Part shown: positions 4,664 through 46,064 of the stretch, in pieces | Position numbering within the stretch: position 1 is the first letter of the stretch | Layout: each line of letters starts with the position of its first letter | Assembly (NCBI GenBank): GCA_045657105.1 | Contig: JAZOSN010000032.1 | Location: 12,477 to 76,476, forward strand | Length of the DNA: 64,000 nt | Reading direction: 5' to 3' | Source of the DNA: Eubacteriales bacterium | Lineage (GTDB): Bacteria > Bacillota > Clostridia > Oscillospirales > CAG-272 | Made by a program: the position numbers and the translations under genes | Notes under the pieces: model-generated | What the model was told of the DNA's origin: nothing | What the model saw: the letters and a program-made list of their open reading frames with translations, nothing else | The model's database searches: none

Positions 4664-5305
4664 ATGAAAAACTACGAAAACGTGGTCATTTTCGACCATC
4701 CGCTTATCAGACACAAGATCGCAATTCTTCGCGACGAAAAAACGAGTATGAAGGAATTTCGTGAGCTCGTTGAGGAGATAACTACCCTTATGACCTACGA
4801 AAGTCTTAAAGACGACGTTCCGACCGTGGAGGTCGAGGTCAAAACCCCGCTCGATATTTGCACTCAGCGTATGGTAAAGGATAACGCCATCGTTATAGTA
4901 CCGATCCTTCGCGCAGGACTCGGTATGGTCAACGGAGTCCACGTTCTTTTCCCGTCGGCAAGAGTAGGGCATATCGGTATGTGCCGTAACGAGGAAACCC
5001 TTGAACCCGAAACCTATTACTGCAAGCTTCCCGACGGCATCGAGGAAAAGCTCGTCGTCGTTGTCGATCCTATGCTTGCAACCGGCGGAAGCGCCTGCGA
5101 CGCTATCGATCTTCTCAAAAAGCGCGGCTGTAAGCATATCAAATTTATGTCGATAATTGGCGCGCCCGAAGGTGTTTCGAGAGTTGCGAAGGCTCACCCG
5201 GACGTTAAGATATACGTTTCCACTCTCGACAGATGCCTGAACGAGCACGGATATATTCTCCCCGGTCTTGGAGATGCAGGCGATAGACTTTTCGGAACTA
5301 AATAA
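4664..5305 (+). CDS. upp: uracil phosphoribosyltransferase
   Basis: 213 aa with N-terminal VIFDHPLIRHKIAILRD, the PRPP-binding loop VVVVDPMLATGGS and C-terminal GDAGDRLFGTK. Confidence 0.92.
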   Translation: MKNYENVVIFDHPLIRHKIAILRDEKTSMKEFRELVEEITTLMTYESLKDDVPTVEVEVKTPLDICTQRMVKDNAIVIVPILRAGLGMVNGVHVLFPSARVGHIGMCRNEETLEPETYYCKLPDGIEEKLVVVVDPMLATGGSACDAIDLLKKRGCKHIKFMSIIGAPEGVSRVAKAHPDVKIYVSTLDRCLNEHGYILPGLGDAGDRLFGTK

Positions 5306-12108: not shown

Positions 12109-12870
12109 ATGGCTATATCGGTATTTAAAAGATATGAGAAAAAGTTTATACTAAACGCCGAGCAGTACAGAGAAACCGTGGCGTTCGTTCAACAGTATAT
12201 GAACTTCGATAAATACTGTGTTGGCGAAAAGGATTATTCTCTGCTTAATCTCTATTTCGATACTCCCGATAATCTTCTTATCACCCGCTCAACAAGTAAG
12301 CCTACGTATAAGGAAAAGCTTCGTCTGAGAGCTTATTTCCCACCACAAACACATGACGATAAGGTCTTTTTCGAGATAAAAAAGAAATATAAAGGAATAG
12401 TTACGAAAAGACGCGCGGTAATGAGATACGGCGAGGCGCTTGAACTTATTGACACCGGAAAAGCTCCGAAGCTTAAAAAAGAGAGCTACATAGATACTCA
12501 GGTAGCAAAAGAGATAGAATATATGTTCAAAAGATACCCCGGACTCGCTCCTGCGGTATATATCGCCTACGACAGAGTTGCGATGTTTGCAAAGGATAAT
12601 CCGGAGTTCAGACTCACCTTTGACAGAAATATCCGCACGAGAAGGGAAAACGTCAGCTTCGACTACGGCGACTACGGAACTCAGCTCCTTCCCGATGGCT
12701 ATAATCTTATGGAAATAAAGATCTCGGACGCCGTTCCGCTCTGGCTCACGTCCTATCTTTCGGAAAAAGGTCTTTATATGACAGGATTTTCAAAATACGG
12801 GAAAGAATACGAAAAAATGATCACCGGAATAGATCCGGCAGAGGTCCTTCTTGCTTCTGATGATCTTTGA
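12109..12870 (+). CDS. VTC-domain (polyphosphate polymerase-like, CYTH-type tunnel) protein
   Basis: 253 aa with N-terminal FKRYEKKF and a LRLRAY...FFEIKKK...KRR pattern typical of bacterial VTC-domain proteins; paired with a DUF4956-like gene. Confidence 0.7.
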   Translation: MAISVFKRYEKKFILNAEQYRETVAFVQQYMNFDKYCVGEKDYSLLNLYFDTPDNLLITRSTSKPTYKEKLRLRAYFPPQTHDDKVFFEIKKKYKGIVTKRRAVMRYGEALELIDTGKAPKLKKESYIDTQVAKEIEYMFKRYPGLAPAVYIAYDRVAMFAKDNPEFRLTFDRNIRTRRENVSFDYGDYGTQLLPDGYNLMEIKISDAVPLWLTSYLSEKGLYMTGFSKYGKEYEKMITGIDPAEVLLASDDL

Positions 12871-43122: not shown

Positions 43123-44910
43123 ATGTCAAATAAAAACAGACATCAAAACAAAAACACGCCGTCAACGCGCGAGATACTCGTGCGGATCGTTGCGGGCTTC
43201 CTCGGCTTTCTTATGATCTTTTCTATTCTTGTGGTTGCTATCGAGGCGTATGCAAATACGGCTGTCGATCTTAAAATCGGAGAAGAAATAGACGTCGGTC
43301 TTTTTTACGGAAGTGATCTTGCCGAAAGCTTTACGGTAAATACGAGCAAGGGATTTCGTCTTGAAATCCCTTGTGACGACGGCTATCTTTCCTTTGACGA
43401 TGCAAGCGAGGCAAAGGTTATTTCGATAACCGCGGGCAAAAATCTTATAAAGAGTGACGGTACCTACGTCGAAGCGGCGGAGAACGTAGATCCGAGCATT
43501 GGCGGATACAGAGTTATGATCTCCTCTTACTCGACTAAGGTAGGCGGATCGTCAAAAAACGATAATATAGTGCTTTTCCGTCCGTCAAGCGCTACGACCG
43601 GATCGTTTAGTAAGGAAAATATCCGCGGATATATAAGCAGAATAGAAGATACCGTTGAAAAGCTTGGAAGCTACGCTTTTCCGGCGTACGTTGACGGAGA
43701 ATACTATATCTGCCTCGGCGGATTTGCAACTGCCGAAAGAGCAGAGAATTTTCTCAGTGCATTTGAGGCCTCGTATATCTGCGAGGGAAGCGTCGTGGCT
43801 CCCGATGAAAACGCCTATTCTGTAATAGACTATCAGACCAACACCGTTATCGGTCATTTTAAGGGAATTGACGCTCTTTACGTAACTCCTGTTGCAAACG
43901 AGATTTTCTCATCGCATCTCGGAGAAACCTATTACGGCAGACTCAGAATTAAAAGCCAAAATAGCGCTTTCGAGATCGTGAATACTCTGCATATGGAGGA
44001 ATACGTCGCGTCGCGTCTTTCGGTTGAGGTAAATACCTCATGGAACGACGAGGCTCTCAAAGCGGCGGCTACCGTCGTGAGAACAAACGCGTATTCTTCT
44101 CTTGACGACAGATCGACACATAAAAACGACGGATTTGACTACTGCACGAATTCTCACTGCGGTAAATATAATGGTTGCGGAAACGTAAACGGCAATATCG
44201 AAAAGACAGTAGATGCAACGAAAAATATGGTCATAAAGAGCGGCGGCGAGCTTATAAACGCTCTATACGGCTCGACCTACGGCGGAGCGACCGTTTCGCT
44301 TTCCGAGGCGTACGGTGAGATCATGGCAGGTAAGGGAAGCTATCTCGCAGGTCAGATCGTGGCTTGGGAGGATTTCGAAAACCGCTCGGGCGGCAGATGG
44401 AAGAGCGAGATAAGCCAGTACGAGCTCTACGAGCTTCTTTCTCAGAGAGTCGCGGACTGTCCGCTGGAAGGTAACGTTTCAGAGATCAAGGTGTTAAAGC
44501 GCTCGCAGAGCGGACTTTACGTCACCGAAATCGAATTTACCGATATTTTCGGGAATAAACTTGTTGTTTCGGGAAGTGAAACTATAAGAAATCTGCTTTC
44601 GGGAACGCTTAAAAGCGCGAACTTTGTCGTGGGTGTCGCGGGAAGCGAGGTGACCGAGATCACGCCGAAATATAATTCAGAAACCAAGGAAACGACAACT
44701 GCCGAAACGACTGTGAAGCTTGACGGCACATACGGAAATTTCGTTTTCGTCGGACGCGGTGTCGGAAGCGGACTCGGACTTAGCCTCAACGGAGTAAACG
44801 ACCTTGCAAACAAGGGATATTCTTACGAGAATGCATACGTCGATATGATCAAGATCTATTATAAGGACGTTGACGTCGAGCTGATAGTGACAAGCGACGG
44901 AGCGATATGA
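43123..44910 (+). CDS. SpoIID/LytB-domain protein with an N-terminal membrane anchor
   Basis: MEEYVASRLSVEVNTSWNDEALKAAATVVRTNAY and STYGGAT resemble the SpoIID amidase-enhancer domain. Confidence 0.75.
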   Translation: MSNKNRHQNKNTPSTREILVRIVAGFLGFLMIFSILVVAIEAYANTAVDLKIGEEIDVGLFYGSDLAESFTVNTSKGFRLEIPCDDGYLSFDDASEAKVISITAGKNLIKSDGTYVEAAENVDPSIGGYRVMISSYSTKVGGSSKNDNIVLFRPSSATTGSFSKENIRGYISRIEDTVEKLGSYAFPAYVDGEYYICLGGFATAERAENFLSAFEASYICEGSVVAPDENAYSVIDYQTNTVIGHFKGIDALYVTPVANEIFSSHLGETYYGRLRIKSQNSAFEIVNTLHMEEYVASRLSVEVNTSWNDEALKAAATVVRTNAYSSLDDRSTHKNDGFDYCTNSHCGKYNGCGNVNGNIEKTVDATKNMVIKSGGELINALYGSTYGGATVSLSEAYGEIMAGKGSYLAGQIVAWEDFENRSGGRWKSEISQYELYELLSQRVADCPLEGNVSEIKVLKRSQSGLYVTEIEFTDIFGNKLVVSGSETIRNLLSGTLKSANFVVGVAGSEVTEITPKYNSETKETTTAETTVKLDGTYGNFVFVGRGVGSGLGLSLNGVNDLANKGYSYENAYVDMIKIYYKDVDVELIVTSDGAI

Positions 44911-44920
44911 AGTAAAACGA

Positions 44921-44953
44921 AAACTCACTACCTTTGAAAGTAGTGAGTTTTTT
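44921..44953 (+). terminator. intrinsic terminator
   Basis: 11-bp stem AAACTCACTAC/GTAGTGAGTTT followed by a T-run. Confidence 0.85.
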
Positions 44954-44998
44954 GCAAACAAAGTTAAGGCGTTGTGTTTTACACAACGCCTTAGTTTC

Positions 44999-45226
44999 TA
45001 TCGGGCCCCGCTTTTGCCGTGGGTCAAGAAATATAACCCTGCTTTTTAGTCAGGGTGGTGTCCTCTCCGATGCTTTACGGTGCTCCCAACGTCCCACGAA
45101 AGCCGTGACAAAAGCAGGGCTAAGTGAGGAGGTCTGCACTCCGGCGCGGAAGTTTATCCGGACTCCAATATCAGTTTGTAGGTTTATTTACCTGACATTT
45201 CCACGCACAAAGCAGGATGCCCGATA
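44999..45226. ncRNA. candidate structured non-coding RNA (unclassified; orientation unresolved)
   Basis: ORF-free gap between convergent genes. The ends pair over about 40 nt in four consecutive helices, enclosing several hairpins. The element is flanked by hairpins at 44966-44992 and 45237-45289. See findings. Confidence 0.45.
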
Positions 45227-45236
45227 ACAGAATATT

Positions 45237-45289
45237 CGGAAAGATGCCGGAAAATACCTTGTTGAGCCCGGCATCTTCCGTCTTTTTTC
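45237..45289. terminator. strong hairpin with a T-run (a + strand terminator; may also end the minus-strand DUF1292 gene)
   Basis: CGGAAAGATGCCGG/CCGGCATCTTCCG stem with a 17-nt loop, then TCTTTTTTC on the + strand. Confidence 0.7.
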
Positions 45290-45336
45290 TTTCCGTTATT
45301 ATTGTGCTCAAAAAAGCTCGGTTTAAAAGCGGAAAA

Positions 45337-45657
45337 TTATTCCGCGTCGTAATCTATCTCGGAAAAGAGAAGATCGTCGAAAACGTCTGCGATGCGCTCG
45401 TATTCGTCGTCGTCCTCGATGGTACAGAGCGAAACGTCGCCGTTTTCTTCCTCTTCAACCTTGAGAATTACGTATTCCTCTGCCTCGGAGCCGTCCTCGT
45501 TTACGGGAGCGAGTGCATAGTAGATCGAGCCGTCGTCTGCCTGATAGGTTTCGATAAGCTCGAATTTGGACTCAGTGCCGTCCTCTTCATCGGTAAGTGT
45601 GAGTATGCCGAACTCCTCTTCGGGGAGCTCTGCGCCGTTCTTTATTTCGTCGTTCAT
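45337..45657 (-). CDS. DUF1292-family acidic protein
   Basis: LTDEEDGTESKFELIETYQADDGSIYYALAPV...EEYVILKVEEEENGD is the typical DUF1292 pattern. Confidence 0.8.
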   Translation of the reverse strand: MNDEIKNGAELPEEEFGILTLTDEEDGTESKFELIETYQADDGSIYYALAPVNEDGSEAEEYVILKVEEEENGDVSLCTIEDDDEYERIADVFDDLLFSEIDYDAE

Positions 45658-45845
45658 TACTTAAATTTCCTTTCTTACTGTGATGGATATATTCTACACT
45701 ATTTTTACCTTTATGTCAAGGTCTTTGGGAATTTAATTGTTAAAGATTTTTCTGCAAAGTGGGCGGGGAATATAATTAAAATCGGGAAGCCTTTGCTTCC
45801 CGATTTTTTCTCTTCGGCCGAATAAGCCTGATTTTCGTTTCGCTT

Positions 45846-46064
45846 TTACTCTTCTGCCGTATCGAGAAGAGGAGTTCTCTCTCTGAAAAGCAGAGAAATG
45901 CACCATATAGCGGCAACGCCGACGAGCGAATAGATTATTCTGCTTCCAACGGCGTCCTGACCGCCGAAAATCCAAGCTACAAAATCATAGCCGAAAAAAC
46001 CGATACTGCCCCAGTTGAGTCCTCCGACGATTGCGAGGAGAAGGGCTATTCTGTCAATAATCAT
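45846..46064 (-). CDS. DUF378-family small membrane protein
   Basis: ALLLAIVGGLNWGSIGFFGYDFVAWIFGG is the DUF378 signature. Confidence 0.8.
   Translation of the reverse strand: MIIDRIALLLAIVGGLNWGSIGFFGYDFVAWIFGGQDAVGSRIIYSLVGVAAIWCISLLFRERTPLLDTAEE

Follow-up and report, generated by a model that had tools for sequence, protein, structure and literature searches.

A diverged 6S RNA below the Rfam threshold lies next to a DUF1292 gene in a genus of uncultured gut Clostridia

The 6S RNA of the Firmicutes has been described as a rod of ~200 nucleotides (nt) that opens into a central bubble, with a preformed hairpin on the 3' side of the bubble and the start of the product RNA on the 5' side (PMC8876501, PMC8414754). 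In case of the Bacillus subtilis 6S-1 RNA (bsrA), the RNA binds the sigma-A holoenzyme and the product RNA starts in the 5' bubble strand, while the 3' bubble strand of the Escherichia coli 6S RNA is unstructured when the RNA is free, and its hairpin is formed only on release (PMC8876501). The adenine next to the product-RNA start is conserved, and rarA is the conserved neighbour of the 6S gene in Bacilli and lactic acid bacteria (PMC8414754). Here we describe a structured RNA encoded in a 64,000-nt stretch of DNA (the window; positions 12,477 to 76,476 of contig JAZOSN010000032.1) from an Eubacteriales bacterium, in the gap between a SpoIID-domain gene and a DUF1292 gene. We consider it very probable that positions 45226..44999 of the window, read on the minus strand, are the single 6S RNA gene (ssrS) of this organism, with a product of ~228 nt. 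The element is a diverged member of a well-known family and an ordinary housekeeping gene, and it represents no new class of RNA.

The architecture of the window RNA agrees with the published descriptions of the Firmicute 6S RNAs (PMC8876501, PMC8414754). With B. subtilis 6S-1 it shares the rod shape and the length of about 200 nt, the closing stem, central bubble and apical arm, and the 3'-bubble hairpin, from which a similar function may be expected. It differs from 6S-1 in that little sequence identity is left, that one copy is present instead of the two paralogues of B. subtilis, that its neighbour is DUF1292 and not rarA, and that it carries a conserved apical loop, which is no described feature of 6S-1. 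With E. coli ssrS the window RNA would share the mimicry of an open promoter and, probably, its origin in a longer transcript made together with a protein gene and trimmed afterwards; the gene order is different, since ssrS lies upstream of ygfA in E. coli, whereas the window 6S lies downstream of DUF1292. The 6S RNAs of sister genera and of Ruminococcus can be aligned with the window RNA from end to end, and they share its helices, the 5'-bubble motif AACC-ACA and the 3'-bubble hairpin. In these genomes, too, DUF1292 is found directly upstream on the same strand and the 6S gene is present in one copy. Unlike these RNAs of ~190-205 nt, which reach 58-71 bits with the Rfam 6S model RF00013 (58.4 bits in Ruminococcus callidus ATCC 27760, 64.5 bits in an R. 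bromii isolate), the window RNA has ~228 nt and 26 bits; its closing stem is extended, and a 13-nt loop of conserved sequence sits in an apical extension. The Ruminococcus 6S RNAs have short apical loops and, unlike the window RNA, a strong promoter of their own after DUF1292.

At the Rfam gathering thresholds no family matched inside the gap. When the 4227 families were searched at permissive thresholds, the best match was obtained with RF00013; it extended over 45221..45003 on the minus strand and covered the model from end to end (positions 1-187) with 26.1 bits and an E-value of 0.0022. An earlier reading made from the sequence only (the sequence-only reading) had compared the closed rod to 6S RNA, and this guess was borne out by the RF00013 match, the homology and the fold. 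Its statement that no known family could be matched was wrong, the RNA being a sub-threshold orthologue of the RF00013 6S RNAs; the Rfam search that it had proposed as a check gave nothing at the gathering thresholds and a full-length 6S match in the permissive run. The copies of the genus score 23.9-28.5 bits, the lowest values in a family where other genera reach 63 bits. Much of this loss is due to insertions and not to lost pairs, since the apical loop has 41 nt in the window RNA and 10 in the Rfam model; the family helices of the consensus and the invariant positions are all retained.

The 341 bases 45300..44960 were found at 87-93% DNA identity in all seven other genomes of the genus and at 69-83% identity in 10 further genera, seven of them from the same family and three from the same order. 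The seven homologous stretches of the same family share their coordinates with the RF00013 matches in the respective genomes; in G020, for example, the DNA match (C48:4753-4946) corresponds to a 6S match at 4750-4960. The RF00013 scores at these stretches were 61.7 bits (G020, above the cut-off), 44.8 (G019), 43.7 (G014), 40.8 (G023), 39.9 (G022), 35.3 (G008) and 19.1 (G009). Since the homologues and the RF00013 matches coincide, the Rfam score forms a continuous gradient over one orthologous locus, with the genus of the window at the low end.

A covariance model of our own (R1) was built from the window sequence and 22 relatives. In the genome of the window it gave one strong match, 191 bits over 45227..44995, the runner-up having 11 bits. 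Exactly one match per genome was obtained in 113 of the 121 family genomes, representing 92 of 97 genera, and the R1 match coincided with the RF00013 match in 18 further genera, in seven of them above the cut-off. R1 also landed on the above-threshold 6S loci (58-71 bits) of R. callidus ATCC 27760, the R. bromii isolate and four other Ruminococcus genomes. The RNA is homologous to accepted 6S RNAs and has the distribution of a housekeeping gene, with one copy per genome and near-universal presence in the lineage. No second 6S candidate was found in the whole assembly of the window's genome (1.75 Mb, 72 contigs).

In the genome G037, a weak second 6S-like match (L025:1069-1259 on the minus strand, R1 33.4 bits) lies in tandem with the genuine 6S gene (RF00013 62.4 bits), ~240 nt downstream of it, and may be a degenerate duplicate. 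The pair recalls the tandem 6S genes of the Bacillus cereus group (PMC7726162).

The region 44995-45232 folds better than its shuffled versions on either strand, with z-scores of -3.57 for the plus and -3.65 for the minus strand. The consensus structure of 38 pairs was calculated by RNAalifold from an alignment of 23 sequences, the window and 22 relatives (A1), and a second set of 40 matches (A2), all from outside the window's genome and mostly from genomes not used for R1, was compared with it. In A1, 95.9% of the cells were paired, against 37-46% when the partners were slid, compensatory changes occurred in 19 of the 38 pairs, and none of 500 shuffles reached the observed values. In A2 the corresponding values were 92.8% against 35-48%, with compensatory changes in 26 of the 38 pairs. 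The consensus is that of a 6S RNA: a closing stem, a central bubble with an open 5' strand, an apical arm with small loops and, as in the B. subtilis-type 6S RNAs, a 3'-bubble hairpin; the rod of ~200 nt is here ~228 nt long. The helix of the 3'-bubble hairpin is kept in 80-93% of the cells in A1 and A2. The outermost closing helix TATCGGGC/GCCCGATA (UAUCGGGC/GCCCGAUA) is specific to the genus, and compensatory changes were found in it in G005, G001 and G007.

Several elements of this structure had been proposed in the sequence-only reading, and the comparison with relatives that it had asked for supports the 6S fold (the 26 pairs of A2). The four helices predicted for the closing rod are all present, 44999-45027 being paired with 45192-45226, and three of them belong to the consensus supported by covariation; the CCCTG/CAGGG hairpin (45036-45056) is a consensus helix of the same standing. 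The two further hairpins that it had placed inside the rod found no support. The bases of both the one at 45077-45106 (ACGG/CCGT) and the one at 45128-45166 (GGAG..TCCGG/CCGGA..CTCC) are paired across the apical arm (45125-45166 with 45057-45096), with compensatory changes. The AAATA/TATTT extension falls into the sequence-conserved central bubble and forms no pairs in the consensus.

Between the stop of the SpoIID-domain gene (44910) and that of the DUF1292 gene (45337) there are 426 nt, in which, as had been noticed before, there is no credible open reading frame (ORF). A protein-coding function of the gap was considered and rejected, as the ORFs that cross it are mechanical ones and the substitution pattern is that of a paired RNA. 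All 8 genomes of the genus have DUF1292 directly upstream of the 6S gene and in the same orientation. The same holds for 40 of 44 loci outside the genus, which belong to the family and the order, and for named Ruminococcus genomes; the gene order is kept across the whole order, cultured Ruminococcus included. A literature search found no paper that links 6S RNA with DUF1292 and no description of a function for DUF1292.

In many genomes of the family, the distance from the DUF1292 stop to the first base of the 6S RNA is only 15-40 nt, which argues for co-transcription and processing there. The spacer in the window has 110 nt. In Ruminococcus and in other sister families a strong promoter is found between DUF1292 and 6S, for example TTGATT-17-TGcTATAAT. 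The weak site TTTAAA-18-AATAAT in the spacer of the window is, judged by its sequence, a possible promoter of the 6S RNA's own. DUF1292 is probably co-transcribed with the 6S RNA, and a joint transcript of the two is likely to be driven by the near-consensus promoter TTGACA-17-TAGAAT, which lies upstream of the DUF1292 gene.

Three metatranscriptome runs, all from one study, and one DNA run were compared with the region 44700-45700. In run X2 a 204-nt contig with a depth of 478 covers 45003-45206 with one difference, and a 494-nt contig with a depth of 45 runs over 45177-45670 and so includes DUF1292, the spacer and 50 nt at the 5' end of the 6S RNA. In run X6 a contig with a depth of 89 spans 45064-45320. 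RNA contigs bridge the hairpin at 45237-45289, and none was found on the SpoIID gene, though the DNA run covers this gene continuously. The sequence of the rod is present at high depth in the RNA libraries, and the contigs are compatible with a joint DUF1292-6S transcript, the 6S part of which is much more stable and accumulates. At 45670 in X2 and at 45669 in X8 the RNA contigs break off, where the DNA contig continues; these stops lie ~15 nt inside the start predicted from the TTGACA-17-TAGAAT promoter. They are a weak hint to this promoter as the start, both runs being from one study. The 6S sequences of related species were found on loose contig ends at 45158/45159 and 45191/45192; thus the 6S RNAs of relatives are expressed in the same samples.

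The strand decides about one alternative, namely that the gap encodes a new stand-alone structured RNA unrelated to 6S, which is transcribed on the plus strand and ended by the hairpin with a T-run at 45237-45289. The sequence-only reading had favoured the plus strand on account of this hairpin, which is indeed real and conserved in the genus, and in folding the plus strand is equal to the minus strand (the z-score of -3.57 given above). However, the U-G pairs conserved in A2, one in 34 and another in 14 of the 40 sequences, would be A-C mismatches on the plus strand, which argues for the minus strand, and the same reading had rightly remarked that the two C-A mismatches of the rod become G-U pairs there. 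The orientation of the Rfam alignment, the R1 matches and the DUF1292 synteny are all in the minus sense, no plus-strand promoter was detected by the scan ahead of 44999, and the homology is continuous with above-threshold 6S RNAs. The plus-strand assignment was thus mistaken, and a new RNA of this kind can practically be dismissed. There is likewise very little chance that the RNA is a 6S derivative whose function has shifted in this genus to another sigma holoenzyme, or to a partner bound by the apical loop, and that this shift explains the drop of the Rfam score. The genus has the poorest scores of its family, 24-28 bits where other genera reach up to 63, its closing stem is longer, it has a conserved leader hairpin of its own, and the loop of its 3'-bubble hairpin has become complementary to the apical loop. 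On the other hand, the RNA keeps all the consensus helices and invariant positions of the family and is the sole 6S candidate in the genome, and much of the lost score is accounted for by the insertions mentioned above.

The position of the RNA behind DUF1292 allows for still another interpretation, in which it is a structured 3' untranslated region (UTR) of the DUF1292 mRNA that acts in cis on stability or termination, the likeness to 6S being inherited and no longer used. In many genomes of the family the distance of the 6S sequence from DUF1292 is 8-60 nt, so that there is no room for a promoter, and RNA contigs bridge DUF1292 and the 5' part of the 6S RNA. However, the depth of the contig on the rod is ~10x that on DUF1292 (478 against 45), as is expected of a stable processed RNA, purifying selection acts on all 6S helices and on the invariant motifs of the bubble in at least 90 genera, and the RNA of sister families is preceded by its own strong promoter between DUF1292 and 6S. 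Moreover, co-transcription followed by processing is normal for 6S RNAs. Precursors are trimmed in both E. coli and B. subtilis (PMC10578484). We regard a purely cis-acting 3' UTR as highly improbable.

Some points weigh against the assignment to the 6S family. The score of 26.1 bits is below the RF00013 gathering threshold of 46.4 bits, which is an operational criterion of the database and not a biological one, and whole-genome searches of all 8 genomes of the genus, that of the window among them, gave no RF00013 match. The minimum-energy fold of the single sequence (-85.3 kcal/mol) differs from the rod, which reaches -76.9 kcal/mol when constrained. The assembly of the window's genome is 83% complete, so a second, canonical 6S RNA on the missing part is conceivable; the same search in five genomes of the genus that are 94-97% complete found no canonical 6S RNA either. 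The expression data are assembled contigs from one study, from which presence and bridging can be read but not strand, ends or true abundance, and polymerase binding, product-RNA synthesis, the exact ends and the processing are what we infer for the RNA.

By analogy with the characterised 6S RNAs, the closing stem, the large central bubble and the apical arm would together mimic an open promoter. The rod would sit in the active site of the housekeeping holoenzyme, RNA polymerase with sigma-A, and hold the enzyme back as growth slows; when nucleotides return, the polymerase would copy the 5' bubble strand into a short product RNA, which would refold the 6S RNA and free the enzyme. Read-through from the strong DUF1292 promoter would probably supply at least part of the RNA, which would then be trimmed to the stable rod, with a possible contribution of the weak promoter at 45327..45298, and the transcript would end at the hairpin 44993..44965, at the bidirectional terminator 44951..44920 or at both.

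The 5' bubble strand contains the motif CCUACA (45182..45177), in which five of the six positions are invariant or nearly so and U45180 is variable; the invariant columns of A1 are C51, C52, A54, C55 and A56. In the Rfam alignment, C45178 stands opposite U44 of the E. coli RNA, the product-RNA start there. From this sequence alignment, the product RNA is predicted to start opposite C45178 and to read 5'-GUAGGUUUAUUU..., with GG at positions 4-5. The A on the 3' side of C45178 is conserved, in line with PMC8414754.

The apical extension is an insertion with respect to the Rfam model. Its stem covaries in 4 of 5 pairs, and the loop CUGCUUnnGUCAC is conserved in 10 of the 19 sequences read of family f1, with looser variants in a few more, as well as in five further genera of the A1 alignment. 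The apical loops of 6S RNAs are normally variable, so a conserved loop is unusual. In the genus, the apical loop and the 3'-bubble hairpin are strongly complementary (RNAduplex energies of -19.6 to -27.0 kcal/mol, z-scores of -2.9 to -7.3), while in other genera the apical loop resembles the loop of the 3'-bubble hairpin and is not complementary to it. A long-range alternative between these two parts, CCCTGCTTTT with AAAAGCAGGG, had been suggested in the sequence-only reading. The pairing is present, and it drives the minimum-energy fold, so this part of the suggestion stood; the evolutionary support for it is ambiguous, as the counts are suggestive but confounded. In the corresponding alignment (A3) 79% of the cells were paired, against 33-52% when slid, with 8 compensatory pairs, a value reached by 4 of 500 shuffles. 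However, the two hairpins are complementary automatically because they share their stem sequences, and the common loop CUUAUG is nearly its own reverse complement, which confounds the pair counts. Beside these counts stands the strong covariation of the local apical stem.

It could be supposed that the 6S RNA of this family has gained a second functional module, the conserved apical hairpin with the loop CUGCUUnnGUCAC, and that its probable production as the 3' part of a DUF1292 transcription unit points to a functional link of the DUF1292 protein with 6S RNA or with RNA polymerase. We hold this extended proposal, taken as a whole, to be unlikely. If it were true, the apical module would allow a self-masked conformer, a kissing-loop dimer or a second site for the binding of a partner.

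The features of the locus are collected in the table.

Table. Positions of the 6S RNA, its parts and the neighbouring features in the window
Feature	Position	Strand	Remarks
6S RNA (ssrS)	44999..45226	-	~228 nt including the genus-specific closing-stem extension; RF00013 and R1 matches, covariation, synteny
Closing stem, 5' strand	45192..45226	-	pairs with 44999-45027; consensus helices 1-3 with compensatory changes
Central bubble, 5' strand	45167..45191	-	unpaired, sequence-conserved
Apical (internal) arm, 5' strand	45125..45166	-	pairs with 45057-45096; many compensatory changes
Apical extension	45101..45121	-	stem 45121-45118/45104-45101 (4 bp), 13-nt loop CUGCUUnnGUCAC (45117-45105); insertion relative to the Rfam model
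3'-bubble-strand hairpin	45036..45056	-	ACCCUG...CAGGGU, B. subtilis 6S-1 type; -9.1 kcal/mol, z -4.25
Hairpin with T-rich tail	44965..44993	-	perfect 13 bp; -19.7 kcal/mol, z -8.8; terminator scan
Bidirectional intrinsic terminator	44920..44951	both	common to the SpoIID gene (+) and 6S (-); z -5.6
Hairpin	45237..45289		A-run before and T-run after it on plus; conserved in 8/8 genomes of the genus
Weak promoter-like site	45298..45327	-	TTTAAA-18-AATAAT, 9/12 matches; hexamers and spacing conserved in the genus
DUF1292 gene	45337..45657	-	Pfam PF06949, 65.8 bits; adjoins 6S upstream
Near-consensus sigma-70-type promoter	45691..45719	-	TTGACA-17-TAGAAT, 11/12 matches; upstream of DUF1292
SpoIID-domain gene	43123-44910	+	Pfam PF08486

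The terminator shared by the 6S RNA and the SpoIID gene follows directly after the 3' end of the 6S RNA and is conserved in 8 of 8 genomes of the genus. The hairpin at 44966-44992 had been proposed earlier as the place where a minus-strand transcript could end. The hairpin is real (44965-44993) and, from its sequence, a probable extra terminator; as the terminator of the 6S RNA in general the proposal fails, since the hairpin belongs to a 41-nt insertion (44955-44995) between the 6S 3' end and the shared terminator. This insertion is present only in the window's genome, and the seven other genomes of the genus, from which it is absent, reach 44920-44951 directly. The hairpin was also considered as a member of a repeat family and rejected as such, as it occurs a single time in the window's genome. 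Separately, 27 nt of the insertion match G037 at 93%. The hairpin at 45237-45289, in the spacer between DUF1292 and 6S, folds with z-scores of -5.1 on the minus and -3.8 on the plus strand. By its sequence it looks like a plus-facing terminator, and in the minus direction it would be a weak one at best. It may serve to block antisense transcripts from entering DUF1292, or be a leaky terminator of DUF1292 or a processing site.

Upstream of DUF1292 an ORF of 80 amino acids (45733-45975, minus strand) is kept within the genus, where tblastn gave 40-80% identity over the aligned part; a Pfam search with it gave no match.

Other Rfam matches were examined and rejected. The engA RNA motif (RF02972) reached 25.5 bits over 45056..44963 with a threshold of 46; this is a chance match, because it lies partly on the genome-specific insertion and any match to this family was found in 2 of the 121 family genomes, none of them above the cut-off. 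Low matches to LhrC and to microRNA and snoRNA families were chance matches to hairpins only. The Gut-1 RNA (RF01706), of which one copy abuts the 6S gene in G009, was considered as a partner of 6S and discarded. It occurs in 71 of the 121 family genomes, with up to 35 scored copies in each, often in tandem a few hundred bases apart; since it is a dispersed multi-copy element, its position next to 6S in G009 is incidental. Six Gut-1 matches are found in the window's genome, and a copy was also noted at L045:1739-1814 on the plus strand.

The existing knowledge of how 6S RNA works is unchanged by these results; their value is for annotation. Annotation at the Rfam threshold leaves a genus of uncultured Clostridia of the animal gut without a 6S RNA, though it is present. 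Below the RF00013 cut-off are all copies of the genus and 16 of the 33 other family genomes scored locally, so about half of the 6S RNAs of the family are missed, and the addition of such sequences to the seed of the Rfam family would close this gap. The stable order of DUF1292 and 6S can serve as a simple synteny anchor by which divergent 6S genes are located, in the way that rarA serves in lactic acid bacteria.

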